Shown: positions 591 through 30,046 of the stretch, in pieces
Position numbering within the stretch: position 1 is the first letter of the stretch
Layout: the number at the start of each line of letters is the position of its first letter
Virus record (IMG/VR): IMGVR_UViG_2648501787_000011
Coordinates: 1 to 31,378 of that record
Length of the DNA stretch: 31,378 nt
Strand: one strand, 5' to 3'
Origin: a virus
Taxonomy: Duplodnaviria; Heunggongvirae; Uroviricota; Caudoviricetes
Notes under the pieces: generated by a model
What the model saw: only the letters and a program-made list of their open reading frames with translations
Told to the model about the DNA's origin: nothing
The model's database searches: none
Position numbers and translations under genes: made by a program

Positions 591-1565
591 TCATTCGGAC
601 GTGACCACAGCAAAATGCAGTCCCGGGTGATTAATCAATAACGGTTCACGGGTTCTGCTGGCTGTCTGCAACTGCATGCTGTTAACCGGTACGGGGGAGC
701 GGGTCCTGTATCCCGTCTGCAACTGTGCGCTGTTCATGGTCATGGGGTCCGTTGTCGGCAGACCTGAGTGCAATTGCGCCCTGCTGAGTACCAGTGGCTC
801 TGCCATCGGACGGGCGGCATAAAAGTTAATCCGGTTAATTGTCAGCGGCTTACCTGTCAGTGCCGGAACAAGTGCAAAATGCAGCCCTGCACGGTTAACC
901 GTTAACGGTTCTTCTGGTTTATATCCGGCCTGAATCTGTATGCGATTAACGGATAATGGCGGACCGGACACAGCCTCATCGTTACCATCGGTGTAAAAAA
1001 ACTCATACCCTGTTCCACCCATGCGGTAATTTTTCAGGAGACATTCCAGCTCGCGGGTGCGTCCGCTGATTAATGGTGTCATGACATCATCAACACAGGT
1101 AAAACGCCCGGCGTCGCTGTCCTGAACCTCCACTTTCAGCAGCCAGCGATACCGCGCCGGATGCAGCGGGTACATGCAGTCGCGCAGGCAGTGATGCGGC
1201 AGAACGGCCGTCACCTTGATGGTGAAGCCCAGCGCCGCAGCAGCGGCTTCAATCTGCCAGGTTGCCAGCCCACCCTTGCGGCGGTATTTCTCCACCACGG
1301 CACGACGGCGGGCTTCCGTTGTGGTGGCGGCAATTCCGCATTCCGGCAGCGCCAGATACTGCTCCCACTCCGGCAGCAGCTGGAGCGTGGTTTCCGGGCG
1401 CATCTCCACATGCAGACGCGAGGCGTCGTATTCAATGCGGGTTAAACGCGCTGCAAGCGCCCTTAAAAAACGGTTTAAATCCGCGTCGTTATCACGCGGC
1501 CATGCTTTACCCCGTGGCATGACCTGTTGCAGTGCGGTCAGCCATTCCGTCACGCTGTGAGCCAT
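591..1565 (-). CDS. Baseplate wedge protein, Mu gp48 / P2 gpI-like, with C-terminal tandem-repeat extension
   Basis: 324 aa, last gene of the baseplate block before the fibre ORF. Residues ~202-320 are seven repeats of ~17 aa with P-[LM]-x-[VI]-N-[RS] cores (PLSVNRIQIQAGY, PLTVNRAGLHFALV, PLTINRINFYAARP, PLVLSRAQLHSGL, PMTMNSAQLQTGY, PVPVNSMQLQTAS, PLLINHPGLHFAVV). Confidence 0.65.
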   Translation of the reverse strand: MAHSVTEWLTALQQVMPRGKAWPRDNDADLNRFLRALAARLTRIEYDASRLHVEMRPETTLQLLPEWEQYLALPECGIAATTTEARRRAVVEKYRRKGGLATWQIEAAAAALGFTIKVTAVLPHHCLRDCMYPLHPARYRWLLKVEVQDSDAGRFTCVDDVMTPLISGRTRELECLLKNYRMGGTGYEFFYTDGNDEAVSGPPLSVNRIQIQAGYKPEEPLTVNRAGLHFALVPALTGKPLTINRINFYAARPMAEPLVLSRAQLHSGLPTTDPMTMNSAQLQTGYRTRSPVPVNSMQLQTASRTREPLLINHPGLHFAVVTSE

Positions 1566-5939: not shown

Positions 5940-7795
5940 TACCCTTGCTCCACGCTGGTGACGCCAGCCTGCGCACTGAGTCTGACGCCGGGTTGATCCA
6001 CTCTGACGCTTTTCACGCGGGCGTCACCTTCCACCACCACACGGATTTCCCCCTGCAATTGCTGCGGAAGGAAAGGATAATTCTGTGTGGGTTGCATACC
6101 TGCCCACGGTCGCGGGTCGGCAATGTTCTTGTCACCCAGCGAATTGAACCAGTCTGTTACCTTACGCCAGACGGATTCCAGTGCTTTCTGGTTGTCCTGG
6201 CTTTGTTGCGCGAACTCGCGCTCCCACGGGCTGGCGTCAGTGGCACCGGCAACGGATTTAGTGAGCGTGTCAACCTCGCCCGGCAGGGCGTGTTGCGTGG
6301 TCAGAAAATCGTAAAATTCCAGACCAGCAGCAATGATGCCTGCACCTTTACCTGCCTTTCCTCCACGGTTCCCCGGACCTTGTGGATTGCTGGAGTTACG
6401 GGGATTGCGCGATGAATCCGGCGCATCCGGCAAACCACCGGTATTGCCATTCATCCCGCCGTTGCCCATGTTGACCACATAAACCGGCATCACACCGGAG
6501 CCGAAAACATCCGTAATGCCGCCGGGTATCCCTTTGCCTTTCTCTTTGGGATTCATGATGTCGTGAATGGTTTTACCGAACTGGTACGTCTTTCTGATGG
6601 CGATAATGCCACCCAGCGCGATCGCCATATACTTACCGACCTGCAACCAGTTCTGGACAGTGTTCTGGTCCACGCTGTTGAGCGCATCAGCCAGTTCCTG
6701 AACGGGCTTTGCCAGTTGTCCTTCAGCAAAACGTTGCCATTCGTTATTCAGTGATTGCATTGCAGCATTAAAGCCTTCGGCATTGGTCTGTGCGGCCTTT
6801 TGCGTGGAACCCAGATCAATCGTGCCGTAAATCATTTGTTCCATCAGTTGCCGGTTTTCAGGGTTGAGCAGCGCCTTAATCCCCTGCATCCCGGTCAGAT
6901 CAAACACATCCTGAAGTTTCAGCGGGTCGTATTTGGCCCGTTTAAGGATTTCCATCATCAGCTCATAGGGCTTTTTGATGTCTTTTGTGCCTTTGACAAA
7001 AACGTCAATGCCGTTTTTTTTCAGGAACTCAATGTTCTTTTTGTCCGACAGGGAGGCATACATGGCCTGAATACTGGTTACCGTCTCATCAATGCTGCCT
7101 TTGTTTTTGGCGAACACCTGAGCAAATGCCCCCATCTGGGCAATGGCTTCCGGTCCCTGATCCTGAATGATGGAAAACAGTTTCGGGGCAGCGCGGGCAA
7201 CATCGGCAACGCTGACAGACCCCACTGCGAACTGCGAATACAGCCTGTCCATCATGTTATTGACCGCATCAGCACCCCGAACGTTTTTTTCCCAGAACTG
7301 GGCCATCAGCCCGGCTGCAACCTGTCCGTCAACACCGAACGCCTGCATCATCAACCCCATGTTGCGGAGGTTGTCCACCACATACTGATAATCACCGGTT
7401 TTCCCCAGAAGTTCGCTGGCCCCCTGACCAAGCGCAGAGGCATCAATACGAATATCTTTCTGGTTCGATACATCCCTGATTTTGTCGTGAAGCGTCTTTA
7501 CCTGTTCAGTGGTTAACTGGGCATCCGTACCCATCCGGCGCATCTGCGCATCAAAATCGGCAACCTGTTTGATAGTAAGACTACTGCCAAGCCCGGCTAT
7601 CATTGCCGTGTAGCGGTTACCCAGCACGTCGAGGCCACGTGTGGCAGATTCCGTAGTGGCTTTAACAAGGCGCATAGCCTTCTGATGGTTCCGGGCGAAC
7701 TGCGACATGTTTGCGCCGTATTGCCGGGCTTTGGCGGTCAGGTTCCCGGCAAGGTTGATCATGATTTCCGTGCTGAGACGGTTACCTGTTGCCAT
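5939..7795 (-). CDS. Tail tape measure protein, Mu gp42-like
   Basis: 618 aa; long Gly/Asn-rich low-complexity segment; preceded by chaperone ORF pair; position between tube/chaperone and baseplate genes. Confidence 0.85.
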   Translation of the reverse strand: MATGNRLSTEIMINLAGNLTAKARQYGANMSQFARNHQKAMRLVKATTESATRGLDVLGNRYTAMIAGLGSSLTIKQVADFDAQMRRMGTDAQLTTEQVKTLHDKIRDVSNQKDIRIDASALGQGASELLGKTGDYQYVVDNLRNMGLMMQAFGVDGQVAAGLMAQFWEKNVRGADAVNNMMDRLYSQFAVGSVSVADVARAAPKLFSIIQDQGPEAIAQMGAFAQVFAKNKGSIDETVTSIQAMYASLSDKKNIEFLKKNGIDVFVKGTKDIKKPYELMMEILKRAKYDPLKLQDVFDLTGMQGIKALLNPENRQLMEQMIYGTIDLGSTQKAAQTNAEGFNAAMQSLNNEWQRFAEGQLAKPVQELADALNSVDQNTVQNWLQVGKYMAIALGGIIAIRKTYQFGKTIHDIMNPKEKGKGIPGGITDVFGSGVMPVYVVNMGNGGMNGNTGGLPDAPDSSRNPRNSSNPQGPGNRGGKAGKGAGIIAAGLEFYDFLTTQHALPGEVDTLTKSVAGATDASPWEREFAQQSQDNQKALESVWRKVTDWFNSLGDKNIADPRPWAGMQPTQNYPFLPQQLQGEIRVVVEGDARVKSVRVDQPGVRLSAQAGVTSVEQG

Positions 7796-7991
7796 GCTGT
7801 TTCTCCAGTTGCTTTATCAGGCGGAACAGCTGCCGCAGGGGCAGCTGTTCCAGGTACTGAATGCTGAATCGCGAAGACAGGTTAACCAGCAGGTTCATCA
7901 GTGCCGCCGCCAGCGGCATCAGTTCGCCCCCGCGTTGCCACCTCCTCAAGCATTTCATCCAGCGCAGCGGCTTTCGTGCTGATAAGTTCAA
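7782..7991 (-). CDS. Candidate frameshift extension of tail assembly chaperone (alternate-frame ORF)
   Basis: Open frame, +1 relative to the chaperone ORF, overlaps its 3' end and ends 14 nt inside the tape-measure start. Region contains GCGGGGGCG (minus strand; C-run at 7927-7931 on plus). Unlikely to start independently at the track Met. Confidence 0.4.
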   Translation of the reverse strand: MNLSARKPLRWMKCLRRWQRGGELMPLAAALMNLLVNLSSRFSIQYLEQLPLRQLFRLIKQLEKQHGNR

Positions 7992-8277
7992 GGTCTGCCG
8001 GGTGGAGCATTCGCAGCTGTTTCATGTCCAGCGGGCCGGGGATATTACCGATTGACGCAACCTGACGGCGCATCATCTCCAGCCCCATCAGCACTTCCGA
8101 GCAGTAAGCCACCGCCTTTCCGTTCCCGCCCATGACGACGCGTTCTGCGGCCAGTTGCGCATCAATCACGTCACTGGCGGTCAGTTCGCGCAGTTTCACG
8201 GTTTTATGCAGGGTTTCATCTGCCGTGCCTTTGCCGGTCAGAAGCCCGTGTTTCAGTTCAAATTCCATTGCGGCCAT
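7882..8277 (-). CDS. Tail assembly chaperone, Mu gp41-like
   Basis: 131 aa acidic protein between tube and tape measure, with overlapping alternate-frame ORF downstream. Confidence 0.65.
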   Translation of the reverse strand: MAAMEFELKHGLLTGKGTADETLHKTVKLRELTASDVIDAQLAAERVVMGGNGKAVAYCSEVLMGLEMMRRQVASIGNIPGPLDMKQLRMLHPADLELISTKAAALDEMLEEVATRGRTDAAGGGTDEPAG

Positions 8278-8278
8278 G

Positions 8279-8635
8279 TCACACCTTCACGCATTTTTCA
8301 CCGATAAAGTTCGCACTGATGGTGCCGGAATCCTCGTCCAGCTCCGCCGGGTTATCCGTGGCTGAACCCGTCATCATGTAGTTCAGGCCGTTGTCGCCGT
8401 AGAACATCACCGTGACGTCTTCCCAGCTGCTGATTTCAATCACGTCCATATCCGCTGCTGCCGCAATGGTCACCTTGATGGACGGCGAGGCCATCTTGCT
8501 GGAGATGCCCCAGACCTTGCCGCCGCCCATATGCTGGGTGCGGCTGAAGCCGCCCGGATTCAGTATGGATTTCCCCTCGGTTTTAATTTCGCGGCCATTC
8601 ACGCGAATGGTCGCCATGCCAAGAATTTTTGCCAT
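8279..8635 (-). CDS. Tail tube protein, Mu gp40 (M)-like
   Basis: 118 aa, directly downstream of sheath gene. Confidence 0.8.
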   Translation of the reverse strand: MAKILGMATIRVNGREIKTEGKSILNPGGFSRTQHMGGGKVWGISSKMASPSIKVTIAAAADMDVIEISSWEDVTVMFYGDNGLNYMMTGSATDNPAELDEDSGTISANFIGEKCVKV

Positions 8636-8644
8636 GCGGCCCCC

Positions 8645-10120
8645 TTAAAGTTTGAACTGAATCAGGCCTGCCAGCACACGCAGCTGGTTCACCAGATTCG
8701 GGTGGCAGATAAAGTTCAGGCGGTTTTTATCACTGCTGTCGCGTGTCACCTGAAGCGTGTCCCTGTAATCGCTGAAGTTCTCCACAAGGCCCGCCGGGAG
8801 GAGTTCGGTCTGGCAGATATCCAGCAGCTCTGCGGTGCACAGCTTCGGCGTCATCACCGGCTGCCCCGCATCCAGCGAGTCCAGCACGTCATCGTCCGCC
8901 AGCTTGTGGCGCGGATAACGGTTCGTGAAACGGTTCTTGATGATGTAACGGATACGGCCCAGCGTGGCGGGTGACTGCACATCCAGGTACGACACATCCG
9001 CATCACCGTACTGATTAACCCGGTACATGGTGATTTCACGCTCGATGCAGACGTTATCCCCGGCGTCCACCATGTGCGTGGCAATGCCGTCATGCAGCAG
9101 CAGGTTACGTTCCGGCATATCCCAGCGAACATTACGCGCAGGCGGCAGAATGCCGGTCAGAACCAGCGTCTGAAGCGGACGCGCCGGGTCAATGGCAAGG
9201 TGATACGCTGCCGTTGCGCCGTATGACGCGGCCCACATCCACGCCGGGTGCGGTGACAGGTTGGTGCCGATACAGCTAATCAGCCAGTCATTGCGGGTTT
9301 CACCAAACGTGCCGGTTTCCCCGTGCGTGCCACGAAACGCTGTCCACAGCTGCGCCTCCATCATTTTGAGCGGCCCCCAGCGATTCAGCAGTTCATCACG
9401 CAGGGTGTTCAGGCTTTTCGTGTCGGTGAACGGGGCGATGATATCGGTAAACCACTCCGGGCCGATGGCCGCAACGGCATCCGCCATTTCCGGTGTCCCG
9501 GTGCCGTCGGTAAACGCGGTTGCGGTCACCTTCACACCTGCCGGGAAGGCTTCACCGGTGTAGTAGTTCAGGCGAACGTCGGCACCGTTGCCGGTGACGC
9601 CGTGCCAGTTCACGGTCAGCTCCACGGTATCCGTGGCATCATCCTTCACCGCAGCGGCCACCTGCGTGGCAGGCTTTTTCGTCACCGCATCAGCAATGGC
9701 TTTTGCAATGTTTTCCTTCGTAGCCCCGGCGCTCACGCTCACCTGAACGGACACACCGTTAATCAGCAGTGCCACCGTTCCGGCTTCAGTCGCTGTCCCC
9801 AGCACGGTCAGCGTGGCTTTTGCGGCAGCGCCTTCAGGCGCGGCAACCGGCATTGCCCAGGTTTCCGTGTACGTGTTGGCACGGCGCAGCATTTTGAGCA
9901 TTTCAGCCAGCATCGACCCTTTGCCATAAAGCTGGTCTGCCTGGCTGTCACTGGTGATGCGGGTCAGTGACAGGGCGTCTGCGCTGCCGGACGATACCGC
10001 ATGGCCCATGACCAGAATTTTTCGGCTTTGCGCGGATGCACCATCCAGCGCCTGTGAATTGTCGATATCGATCCAGACAAGCGGGACGCGGATATCATCA
10101 GGAATTGAACCCAGCGACAT
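8645..10120 (-). CDS. Contractile tail sheath protein, Mu gp39 (L)-like
   Basis: 491 aa; position and size match Mu L; followed by tube gene. Confidence 0.85.
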   Translation of the reverse strand: MSLGSIPDDIRVPLVWIDIDNSQALDGASAQSRKILVMGHAVSSGSADALSLTRITSDSQADQLYGKGSMLAEMLKMLRRANTYTETWAMPVAAPEGAAAKATLTVLGTATEAGTVALLINGVSVQVSVSAGATKENIAKAIADAVTKKPATQVAAAVKDDATDTVELTVNWHGVTGNGADVRLNYYTGEAFPAGVKVTATAFTDGTGTPEMADAVAAIGPEWFTDIIAPFTDTKSLNTLRDELLNRWGPLKMMEAQLWTAFRGTHGETGTFGETRNDWLISCIGTNLSPHPAWMWAASYGATAAYHLAIDPARPLQTLVLTGILPPARNVRWDMPERNLLLHDGIATHMVDAGDNVCIEREITMYRVNQYGDADVSYLDVQSPATLGRIRYIIKNRFTNRYPRHKLADDDVLDSLDAGQPVMTPKLCTAELLDICQTELLPAGLVENFSDYRDTLQVTRDSSDKNRLNFICHPNLVNQLRVLAGLIQFKL

Positions 10121-26141: not shown

Positions 26142-27080
26142 TTACGTGCGCAGCAGGGTTGAAATATCAACGTCCAGGTCTAATTCACGGAAAGCCTGAC
26201 GCAGATAATCTTCATTAACACGTTCACCTTTACCGTGGGCGGTCATGGCAGCAAGGCGCAGCGAGTGGTTCAGGATGCGAAGCGCACCTGGCTTTTGTGC
26301 AATCTGCTGTAATAATTCCCGCTCGTTTTCGCCGGTAATTTGCCAGGCATCCGCAATGGCTTTTACATCATCAATTTTGGTTTTATTGATTGCCGTCCGT
26401 TTGGCAATACGGGAAAACAGGCGGGCAAATTCAACCGTTCTGTTACCACCGGTCATGTTTGAATAAACACGGTGATTCCCCATCAGAACAAGGCCAATAC
26501 GGGCGGACTCCTGTAACAGGCGGAGTTCTTCCAGAACCTCAGCGCCAAGATGATCAGCTTCGTCGATAATGACCAGCCCCTGGGTACCTTCAAGACGGCG
26601 TCGCAAAGCGCGGGAGAGTGGCCCCTTACGGCGTGGTGCGTCATTCATTCCCAGTTCATAAGCCAGTTCAGTCAGGCATTCCAGAACACTGGCACAGGAT
26701 GGGGTAATGGTAATCATCCAGACATTGTTATTGGTGCGACGAAATTCGCGGGCCGCTTCAGTTTTTCCCACACCTGGATTACCGCAGATAACAGAAATAC
26801 TTTCAGTCAGGCTGGCAAAACGCATACTCGTCCAGATTTGGCGTGCTGTTCTGGTTTCCACAAAACGTGGTGGTTCTGGCAGCTCTGCGGCACGGTGATA
26901 GTTCTCCAGCCAGCGTTCCAGCATCTGCGCAACACGTTCATTGTCGCCGTTGTACTTGTTATTCACGAATGCGCTTAACGTTCCTGCGGCCACGCCAGAC
27001 TCGCGTGCAATTTGTGCATAAGTCGCTTTTTCACTTTCTACAAGCGTGCGCAGTCCTGCGCGAATATCGGAAATATTCAT
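26142..27080 (-). CDS. B: Transposition target DNA activator B (AAA+ ATPase MuB)
   Basis: 312 aa; Walker A GNPGVGKT; recognised as near-identical to Mu B along its length. Confidence 0.95.
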
Positions 27081-27118
27081 CTGAATAACCTCGTAATTAA
27101 ATTTTGTTTAAACGTTAA

Positions 27119-29107
27119 TTAAATGGCTTTTTTACGTCTGTTCTGTTCCAGAATATCCAGCGAATGATTCAGATATTCATCACGATCAGTTTCATATTCA
27201 TCATCGGGTTCCTGGTATTTCACCTGCACCGTGTTACCGGAAGGCCGGAAAATACCAACAACCCTTGATTCTGGCGCTGCTGCTTCGGCTATCTGCGGCA
27301 GCAGTTCAGCAACTTCCAGCGCGTCCATTTGCTTCTGCGCCTTAATGGCTGCTTTAGTTGCAGATTTCAGTTGTTTCTGGCGGCGGCGATATTCGCGGCC
27401 TGCCGCAGCATCATTAAATGCAACAGGTGCCAGACATTCCGCTTCACAGATAAACCGACCGTCCAGGGTGTAACAATAAACCGTGCTGTGTAACTGCTGT
27501 GGATCAAACCTGACCACAACTTTTTTCACGCCGGCATTCATTAACGCCATGTTGTAATAAACGTTTTTCGCGCCTTTAAGGGAGCCGCCAACTTTAAGCG
27601 TAAACTCGCCTTTGCGTGAAACGTTCACCGCCTCGGCAGGCAGTAACAGCATCCGTTTTTGTTCTTCGGTTGGCTTACGCACAATCGTTCTGGCGTATTC
27701 ACGCTCGAAAACATCATCAAACGAGAGTTTGCCCCCGCACATTTCTGTTTCACGGCCTGTTCTGGCATTGAACATCGCAACACCTTCAGCAAGGGTTTTC
27801 AGAAACAGCTCTGCATCAACAGCACGGTCGCCATAGTTATCAGGTTTTGCCTGCGGATTTGGCCCCGTATATGCGCCAGCCAGTGCCGGATGCTTATCAA
27901 TGTATTCTTCAAGCCCACCAACACCGAAAGCGCGTTCAACAGGTTTTGCCTGGCCCCAGCCTTTACCGGCAACAACGCTTGTCCAGTGCATTTTTGCGCC
28001 CATCAGTAAAAACAGCCCCTTTGGATCGTCCTCTTTCACTTTAAAGCGGTAACGATTGGGCGCGCCCCCCGTCAGCCATTTATTCGCTGCACCACGGGTG
28101 TTATCAATGGTGATGTGAAAATCTTCCGGGATGCCGTAGCGTGTCACCACATCCATGAATGAGAGGCGAATTGAATCGATGTTCTCGCTTACATCGCAGC
28201 GCCAGCCCAGAATTTTTCGGGTTTTCACATCCTGCCAGAACCATGTTTTCGGGCGGATCACATCACCGTTAAACCAGCGTACAAAGACGTTATGCAGATA
28301 ACCGTCGCCGTTGATCCACTGCATGGCGTCCAGGTGTTCCACAGTTCGCTGCTGTGCCGGTATCAGATGCATCAGTGCATGTTCACCTTCACGGCAGGCA
28401 ACAACCATTGCCTCGTCCAGTTGTTGAATCCGGCGAAAGGCCGTGGCACGGGAGGGAATACTCCAGCCATGCTCGCGGGCTGCCAGTTCCAGACGCTCAT
28501 AACATTTGCGGAAGGCGGGTTTTTCCGGTCGCAGATAATCTGCAATCAGAAACTGCCAGGCATCCTCGTCAAATTCACTTTTGTGAACGTTGCGACGAGA
28601 TGCACCACGTCCATCAACAAGTGCAGCCGCCCAGTCAGGCTTCGCAAACTTCTGTACCTGGTAATACTTGTCCCGCAAAGTGGATGCGCTGACCTGGTAA
28701 TGGCCTGCAACGGTCGCAAATGCCGTTTTCGTTGAAATCCCCTGGTTCAGCATTTCGTCTGCAGCCTGAACCGCAGGCAACCATTTTTCAGCAAGTCTGC
28801 GCTGGGAATCGCTGGCGTTATCCCATTTGCTCCACAGTGCCTCACGATCATAATCATGGGCTTCCAGCGTGGGGCGGGCGATTTCAAAACGGCCCTGGCT
28901 TGTTTCAATTCTCCCTTGTTGCAACAGAATTTCAGCACGTAATGTGACAGGAAATGATTTGATATTGAATTCAAATGATACACCTTTAGTTCCTGCAACC
29001 TGCCTGAACTCCCAGCCTTCTCTTTGTGCCTTACGTGTAATGTTAGTGGCTTGCTTTGGTAAACCTGCCAAACCGAGCAACTCTTTTGCTGTATACCATT
29101 CTTTCAT
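27119..29107 (-). CDS. A: DDE transposase A (MuA), D108-type N-terminal domain
   Basis: 662 aa; from about residue 70 onward recognised as Mu A; first ~65 aa differ from Mu and resemble the c repressor N-terminus in this window. Confidence 0.95.
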
Positions 29108-29114
29108 AGCGCAC

Positions 29115-29336
29115 CTAGTATCGAGACGGCCAAATATCTTGCGGTGTCATTCCCAGTGCATCTGCAATGATTTTCTCCGCTTTCGGATATCTCTTATCCA
29201 AAGCATTTTTTAATGTTGAAGACGAAAGATGATTAGATCTTCCCAATTCAGCTAGTGACATATTGCGTTTTCGTAGCGCTGCAACGATGTCAGCTCTGTG
29301 CCAATCTTGGCTGTTAGTTCTTTTATTCATATGCAT
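29115..29336 (-). CDS. ner: Ner DNA-binding regulator
   Basis: 73 aa (D108 Ner length as I recall it; Mu Ner is 75 aa); conserved DWHRADI..A.L...ELGR and IWPSRY C-terminus; first early gene upstream of A. Confidence 0.9.
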
Positions 29337-29521
29337 TTCATGTAATCCTTTCAGATTCCCCCGTGAGCTACGCTATAAAGTAGCTCACGGCATATCGTGC
29401 AATGTAGTGTGGAATCACTTTCAAATCAATAGTGATTTGAGAGGATTTACCGCAATTTTGCATAACGGCATGATTTTTATATGAATTTATTTTATCTCTA
29501 TTGAAATCACTAGGATTTTAA
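29337..29521. promoter_or_regulatory. Immunity/operator region between ner and c (divergent promoters, Ner and repressor sites)
   Basis: Perfect inverted repeat CCGTGAGCTAC-N8-GTAGCTCACGG at 29361-29390; palindrome TCAAATCA-ATAG-TGATTTGA at 29421-29440; repeated (G)AAATCACT 9-mers at 29411-29419 and 29504-29512; AT-rich stretch at 29470-29500. Confidence 0.7.
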
Positions 29522-30046
29522 ATGATGTCTTTTGAAATCAAAGAATGGTTTAATGCGAAAGAGCTGGAAGGGATGCCTGGTGTACCAAAGTTGGCGACTA
29601 ACATTACCAGGAAAGCTGTGGCGGAAGATTGGGTAAAACGTCAGCGTCACGGTGGGAAAGGTGTCGCTTATGAGTATCACATCAACAGTCTGCCAGAAGA
29701 AACACGCAGGGCCATTAAAGGAGCCTCACTTTCTGATAAACCAGTGCATACATCAATCGCCCATACAGTTGATGAGAGGCTAATTTATGCAATGAGCTTC
29801 TTAACACCAGATGAGCAGGCCGCAGCTGTGGAGATCATTCGTGTAGCAGGGATTAAAGGTCTTATGCCTACAATTGTCAGTAAAGATAAGGCATTAGAGG
29901 CATTAGGGATTACTGTGGAGCAACAGAAAACCCTGCAAACTCTTCAGGCATTACCACCGGAAAAAGTGAGAGAGATTTTGTCTCAGTATGAAGGCAAAGA
30001 ACATAATTTCCCTGTAAGAGAAAACGATGTAAAGAAGGCTGTATAA
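29522..30046 (+). CDS. c: Repressor c (Mu/D108 immunity repressor)
   Basis: 174 aa on opposite strand to early operon, between operator and attL; N-terminus shares a DNA-binding domain with A ([26 protein letters not shown]); C-terminus LPPEKVREILSQYEG...KKAV resembles Mu c. Confidence 0.85.
   Translation: MMSFEIKEWFNAKELEGMPGVPKLATNITRKAVAEDWVKRQRHGGKGVAYEYHINSLPEETRRAIKGASLSDKPVHTSIAHTVDERLIYAMSFLTPDEQAAAVEIIRVAGIKGLMPTIVSKDKALEALGITVEQQKTLQTLQALPPEKVREILSQYEGKEHNFPVRENDVKKAV

Follow-up and report, generated by a model that had tools for sequence, protein, structure and literature searches.

How is the second of two overlapping reading frames at the 3' end of a tail-assembly chaperone gene read in a Mu-like transposable prophage of Escherichia coli? 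The question is raised by the IMG/VR viral record IMGVR_UViG_2648501787_000011, of which all 31,378 nucleotides (nt) were analysed here (the window, in whose numbering coordinates are given). In it an open frame crosses a run of five G's (G5) near the end of the chaperone gene, in the +1 (equivalently −2) frame relative to that gene, and leads into the tape-measure gene. The explanation that we favour, and to which we would give a probability of roughly 85%, is a programmed ribosomal −2 frameshift in the chaperone gene, at a site homologous to the G/GT-like site of gp41 and gp41-T in phage Mu. Xu, Hendrix and Duda reportedly described that programmed −2 ribosomal frameshift of Mu gp41/gp41-T in 2004. 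The case made here is built on homology, the slip motif and its phase, conservation, and the coding signature of the extension; the −2 direction is taken from the Mu literature.

Overlapping frame and slip site

The chaperone (Table 1) matches the Pfam family Gp41_Mu (PF23746, E=1.2e-37) over the full profile and, more weakly, Phage_TAC_7 (PF10109, E=2e-07), as well as phrog_508, tail assembly chaperone; in a tblastn comparison it is 49% identical to Mu gp41. A preliminary description of this DNA, made from the letters alone, had called the gene gp41-like and had seen a G/GT-type arrangement beside the tape-measure gene, with an open reading frame (ORF) at 7782-7991 that runs across the G5 run in the +1/−2 frame and ends just inside the tape-measure start. 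These statements are borne out, the first by the Pfam match, the arrangement by gene order and overlap, and the frame by direct reading. The ORF listing gives exactly 7782..7991 (69 aa, with a TTG start), though this start is mechanical and the frame is really open from 8021, the upstream stop that remained to be located being a TGA at 8024..8022. The alternate frame shares 140 nt with the 3' end of the chaperone gene, and its own stop, a TAA at 7784..7782, lies 14 nt inside the tape-measure gene, the ATG of which is at 7795..7793.

At the slip site the zero frame reads ACG CGG GGG CGA ACU and continues for 13 codons past it. The −1 frame, GGG GCG AAC UGA, had been said to meet a TGA within three codons and does so (7921..7919). 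Nor is there, in the zero-frame phase at this site, any slippery heptamer of the form X XXY YYZ, on which the −1 shifts of lambda and P2 take place.

The Mu record (AF083977.1) has two coding sequences at the homologous position, Mu_41 and the joined Mu_56, the latter annotated as 'verified -2 translational frameshift in PMID 15469818; tail assembly chaperone frameshift product'. Mu reads ACA CAA GAA CGG GGG CGA GUG at its site, and the 9-mer CGG GGG CGA and its codon phase are identical in the window. A passage in Firth et al. (PMC3498833) puts the efficiency of the −2 shift that gives Mu gpGT at about 2.2%, and both there and in a passage of Atkins et al. (PMC5009743) gpGT is cited as the natural case of −2 frameshifting. 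The Mu 10-mer alone gave about 14% shifting in a purified cell-free system (bioRxiv 10.1101/2025.10.02.679949, a 2025 preprint). The preliminary description had treated a +1 or −2 direction as out of the ordinary for a tail chaperone: that the direction is other than −1 stands, and the −2 shift is a known hallmark of the Mu-like phages (Mu GenBank record, PMC3498833, PMC5009743).

In the mechanism proposed for the window, most ribosomes would keep to the zero frame, and their product would be the 131-aa chaperone. The others, a minority, would stall while the P site has tRNA-Gly on GGG (7929..7927) and the A site has CGA, which is poorly decoded; this tRNA would move two bases back, onto GGG (7931..7929), and reading would resume with GGC GAA CUG in the −2/+1 frame and go on to the UAA at 7784..7782, giving a 165-aa fusion. 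By analogy with lambda gpG/gpGT, coating of the tape-measure protein would fall to the N-terminal part that both products share, and recruitment of the tail tube protein to the 48 residues of T; what counts in tail assembly would be that fusion and chaperone are made in a fixed ratio, with little of the former. In tails of the lambda and P2 type such a low fusion-to-chaperone ratio is required for assembly (PMC5009743). What we infer are the events at the tRNA, the binding partners and the part played by the Shine-Dalgarno-like element described below.

The T extension and the predicted products

The extension that would follow the shift, GGC GAA CUG ... AGG UAA, matches phrog_38797 with E=1e-34. 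Past the chaperone stop, nucleotide diversity at positions 1, 2 and 3 of the +1-frame codons is 0.153, 0.049 and 0.232 (35 unique sequences), a pattern from which the T extension is judged to be a real coding region. Pairwise BLASTP between this extension and that of Mu gives only a weak match (E=0.007). Despite this, the extension is homologous across the family, Mu included, because its alignment is collinear over 42 lineages, Mu among them, with the common pattern GG[DE]...L...LPLR.L.R.

The chaperone has a predicted mass of 13.9 kDa. A −2 shift is predicted to yield a fusion protein of 18.2 kDa (165 aa) with the junction ...ATRG-GELMPL..., and a +1 shift one of 164 aa with the junction ...ATRG-ELMPL..., which has one Gly fewer. 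The corresponding junction peptides are predicted to be GGELMPLAAALMNLLVNLSSR, with a monoisotopic mass of 2169.165, for −2, and GELMPLAAALMNLLVNLSSR, with 2112.144, for +1. Neither the 165-aa nor the 164-aa form is present in a public protein collection of 15 billion sequences, and the fusion protein has no match among PDB sequences or in NCBIfam. Its C-terminal 45-aa part is filed as 'hypothetical protein' from more than 1000 contigs (E. coli, Shigella, Salmonella). The ORF for this part, which follows an AUG (7782..7919, minus strand, in the window; 682..819 in survey locus L004), is called by the Prokaryotic Genome Annotation Pipeline (PGAP) in some genomes and omitted in others.

Survey of related loci

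Related loci were drawn from a phage collection, complete E. coli genomes, IMG/VR viral contigs and one genome per GTDB species, 176 loci at first and then 15 further distinct contigs. The hosts include Escherichia, Klebsiella, Serratia, Brenneria, Raoultella, Kluyvera, Pluralibacter and Shewanella, together with Aeromonas, Rheinheimera, Marinomonas, Vibrio, Photobacterium, Plesiomonas and Pasteurella. The comparison with other Mu-like phages that the preliminary description had called for gives a consistent picture: in 172 of the 176 loci GGGGGCGA occurs once and once only within the final 250 nt of the chaperone gene, its phase being xGG GGG CGA every time, and in all of these loci the +1 frame extends, over 100–145 nt, to the tape-measure start. 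The same motif phase and +1-frame extension are found in 14 of the 15 further contigs. Since it recurs in this way, the overlap arrangement is far beyond chance. It had been suggested that a different length of the G run on resequencing might remove the overlap or put the extension in the −1 frame; the comparison speaks against this, G5 being identical in every close relative compared.

Three of the exceptions have indels elsewhere in the chaperone gene and an intact motif (E. coli ETEC1732, and two copies in an indel-rich Klebsiella assembly). In E. coli ETEC1732 (locus L005, NZ_CP122823.1) and in ETEC1734, a 1-nt deletion 5' of the slip site truncates the chaperone at codon 87; PGAP flags the ETEC1732 gene as 'frameshifted', and its slip motif is intact. 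Klebsiella sp. WOUb02 has at least six copies of the chaperone locus (L147, L148, L150, L153, L157, L158), on the chromosome and on several replicons labelled as plasmids, and multiple indels in two of them, which suggests active Mu-like transposition or a noisy assembly. In Marinomonas rhodophyticola KJ51-3 (locus L177, NZ_JAPEUL010000004.1, about 1125..1145) the run is G4, in CAG CGG GGC GAU CUG. Chaperone and T there stand in one frame, so that the short product would not be made; the prophage may be defective and the G4 run a mutation in it, or the homopolymer may have been misassembled.

Codon choice at the slip site

Codon choice and the Shine-Dalgarno-like element were compared over 42 representative lineages at less than 85% identity. 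The codon before GGG is CGG in 41 of them and AGG in one, and in all 42 the Gly codon is GGG and the Arg codon after it CGA, as against 15% (CGG), 17% (CGG and AGG together) and 13% (CGA) of Arg codons, and 16% (GGG) of Gly codons, elsewhere in the same genes. The codons flanking the motif vary freely on both sides. In the re-paired codon, the base preceding GGG would stand in the middle if the move were −2, and first if it were −1. These fixed synonymous choices, NGG-GGG-CGA, would favour a backward (−2) slip, because the third base before GGG is G in every lineage, which is required for backward re-pairing and not for a +1 slip. An I·A wobble pair decodes inefficiently, and the invariance of CGA is in keeping with an A-site codon that is decoded slowly; part of the constraint on CGA also comes from dual coding, as Arg in the zero frame and as part of Gly-Asp/Glu in the +1 frame.

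Stop codons set bounds of −6 to +11 nt, counted around the first G of the run, to where the shift can occur: there are lineages in which no more than 6 nt (two codons) of open +1 frame precede the run, and others in which the zero frame stops 11 nt past its first G. Because stops in both frames enclose it in this way, the shift must fall, family-wide, within about 17–20 nt centred on the motif.

The Shine-Dalgarno-like element and RNA structure

The candidate 5' stimulator in the window is an internal Shine-Dalgarno-like element, GAGGAGGUG, which lies 7 nt 5' of the G5 run and 9 nt 5' of the P-site GGG codon. Its predicted duplex with the 3' end of 16S rRNA, −14.9 kcal/mol, is the strongest among the 42 lineages. 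When stretches starting 20–10 nt before the run were scanned, 35 of the 42 lineages had a duplex of −6 kcal/mol or better, compared with 16.5% of equal-sized background spans elsewhere in the genes, and in the lineages that carry an element it sits 7–11 nt 5' of the run. The third-position G that completes the element is kept though the encoded amino acid varies. Shine-Dalgarno stimulators stand 9–14 nt away in −1 (backward) shifts and 3 nt away in +1 shifts (PMC5009743). The presence and spacing of the upstream element would thus favour a backward slip over +1, because the spacing is near the backward value and not near 3 nt. The element is not essential, since Mu has none. That it boosts the −2 shift in most Mu-like lineages, Mu itself excepted, is possible, and we put it forward tentatively.

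On the 3' side, the 67 nt that follow the site show no folding beyond that of shuffled sequence (window, z=0.06; Mu, z=−0.13), RNAalifold predicts no pairs there over 19 lineages, and no relevant Rfam family was found. A local 7-bp hairpin in the window was considered as a conserved element and rejected, since its pairing over the lineages, 67%, is no better than the 65% obtained after sliding the partner by 3 columns.

Other explanations

A +1 shift is the only serious rival. It would make the same fusion, less one residue (164 aa), by a slip of the P-site tRNA-Gly from GGG to GGC while CGA is slowly decoded in the A site, and we give it a small probability. As +1 and −2 lead into the same frame, the ORF layout suits both, and in Listeria phages and SPP1 the tail chaperone genes are known to use +1 slips (PMC3498833). 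One locus, L253 (IMGVR_UViG_2636416088_000003, about 1130..1150), reads GAC GAG GGG CGA UAG, a substitution having left four G's with the phase kept; with its stop directly after CGA it resembles a classic +1 'hungry codon' site, and, as the sole locus with imperfect −2 re-pairing, it may use a +1 shift. For the family as a whole, the homologous Mu site is annotated, and in the passages named above cited, as a verified −2 shift; the synonymous G before GGG, fixed in 42 of 42 lineages, would be needless for +1; and the Shine-Dalgarno-like element stands 7–11 nt 5', where 3 nt is typical of +1 stimulators. Recoding would be dispensed with altogether if a 45-aa protein were initiated independently at the AUG at 7919..7917 with the G5 run as its ribosome-binding site, as the PGAP calls of this ORF in some genomes and the presence of its sequence in public protein sets (more than 1000 contigs) would have it. 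We consider this quite unlikely: 27 of 172 loci have no AUG anywhere in the extension, and Mu and a Vibrio group have none near the site; a ribosome-binding site would have no need of an invariant CGA or of a fixed phase to the gene 5' of it; the motif is always spanned by an open +1 frame, which at times begins only two codons before it; and Mu makes the fusion protein (GenBank record). A cause at the level of the nucleic acid, be it slippage of RNA polymerase on G5 (−1 G or +2 G), an error of homopolymer sequencing or assembly, or a decaying pseudogene, is very unlikely indeed. Homopolymer runs are classic sites for all three, the G4 run of L177 does fuse the two frames, and some relatives have indels elsewhere in the gene. 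But the run is short, five G's being well below the roughly 9 A or T described for transcriptional slippage in bacteria (PMC5009743); among 176 loci that come from many sequencing projects, 172 show the same length and phase; of 47 near-identical copies in complete E. coli genomes, 45 have no gap when aligned over the 561-nt query; and purifying selection acts in both frames.

Several points count against a programmed −2 shift as proposed here. In the window an AUG follows the run by four codons, with GGGGG 7 nt 5' of it, as an independent start would have it. The sequence by itself does not separate −2 from +1, the products of which differ by one Gly. At L253 a −2 re-pairing would be imperfect, yet T lies in the +1 frame there too. 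The Shine-Dalgarno-like element, the role of which in the other lineages we infer, is missing from Mu (−1.5 kcal/mol), the only member on which experiments have been done, and shuffling, RNAalifold and the slid control agree that there is no conserved RNA structure downstream. The −2 shift nonetheless remains the explanation that we prefer, at the probability given at the outset.

Comparison with known systems

The window is like Mu in that its chaperone belongs to the Gp41_Mu family and the locus lies between tail tube and tape-measure genes, and in having a +1/−2-frame extension of about 50 aa with a common LPLxRxFxR motif. It is unlike Mu in that the chaperone is only 49% identical and there is no megablast match at the DNA level, and in its strong GAGGAGGUG element (−14.9 vs. 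−1.5 kcal/mol). The zero-frame tail after the site has 13 codons in the window and 6 in Mu, and T runs 14 nt past the tape-measure start in the window, whereas in Mu it ends 14 nt short of it. The Mu site has been tested experimentally; that of the window is known from sequence.

Lambda gpG/gpGT and P2 gpE/E+E' have the same gene position and the same two-product logic. P2 E and gp41 share the Pfam family Phage_TAC_7, which the window matches weakly, and the window chaperone has no detectable sequence similarity to lambda G. In Listeria phages and SPP1, +1 frameshifts in tail genes were shown by protein sequencing (PMC3498833); as in the window, an extension in the +1 relative frame lengthens a tail-assembly or tail protein, but the sites are not on a G5 run and the sequences are unrelated to gp41. 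A likeness to the upstream element is found in E. coli dnaX, where an internal Shine-Dalgarno-like element also stands 5' of a backward slip site, at 9–14 nt (PMC5009743) as against the 7–11 nt found here. The dnaX shift is a −1 shift on A AAA AAG with a 3' stem-loop, in contrast to the window, which has no conserved 3' structure.

Gene neighbourhood

The window is identified as a Mu-like transposable prophage of E. coli because its genes include those for MuA, MuB, a c-like repressor that has a Mu DNA-binding domain, and a major head protein of the gpT type. Its high-coordinate end, with MuA, MuB and the repressor, is the early region. Sheath, tube, chaperone and tape-measure genes follow one another in an order that, with the Pfam and PHROGs matches, marks a contractile-tail module, the chaperone standing between tube and tape measure; in near-identical prophages PGAP names the last of these genes 'phage tail tape measure protein'. 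A scan between the tail genes found no promoter or terminator, which is consistent with co-transcription and lends no support to a separate transcript.

Table 1. Position of the slip site, the overlapping frame and the surrounding genes in the window
Feature	Position	Strand	Basis
Whole open stretch of the +1/−2 frame, 79 sense codons	7782..8021	minus	translation
Slip site CGG GGG CGA (G5 run 7931..7927)	7924..7932	minus	same 9-mer and phase as Mu
TGA closing the −1 frame, three codons past the slip site	7919..7921	minus	direct reading
Internal Shine-Dalgarno-like element GAGGAGGUG, candidate 5' stimulator	7939..7947	minus	predicted duplex with 16S 3' end
'T' extension after the predicted shift, 48 codons	7782..7928	minus	translation, phrog_38797
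Chaperone ('G' product), zero frame, 131 aa, Mu gp41 homologue	7882..8277	minus	Pfam, PHROGs, tblastn
Tail tube gene, directly 5' of the chaperone	8279..8635	minus	Pfam Tail_tube E=5e-37; phrog_185
Tail sheath gene	8645..10120	minus	Pfam/PHROGs matches
Tape measure protein gene, 618 aa	5939..7795	minus	phrog_973 tail length tape measure protein, E=1e-136
MuA transposase (662 aa), MuB (312 aa) and divergently oriented repressor with Mu DNA-binding domain	26142..30046		

Megablast of the tail-chaperone region against the phage collection gave no match, so that, as far as this comparison goes, the window is neither Mu nor a close relative of any deposited phage at the DNA level. The closest phage in a more distant search is an unannotated Klebsiella phage, at about 70% identity. 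Of 5426 complete E. coli genomes, about 46–51 carry near-identical copies of the region. A 97%-identical copy lies on plasmid NZ_CP012497.1 (136 kb, E. coli 06-00048) at 115400..115960, and the chromosome of the same strain has one too.

Significance

The biology is in its essentials already known: Mu-like phages make a G/GT-type chaperone pair by a −2 shift, and the window adds a member, not a mechanism. What it does bring to light is a gap in annotation, since the putative fusion protein of a prophage lineage widespread in E. coli, Shigella and Salmonella is missed by genome annotation; the invariant, phase-locked 8-mer GGGGGCGA would let annotation pipelines call the fusion automatically. 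The roughly 190 loci form a natural data set on the determinants of a rare recoding event, with their fixed G5-CGA core, the frequent upstream Shine-Dalgarno-like element and no conserved 3' structure. The frequent upstream element is a testable candidate stimulator of −2 frameshifting. If it does act in this way, bacterial −2 frameshifting would be Shine-Dalgarno-stimulated, as the dnaX −1 shift is, and the rate at which this prophage makes its fusion protein might far exceed the approximately 2.2% reported for Mu.

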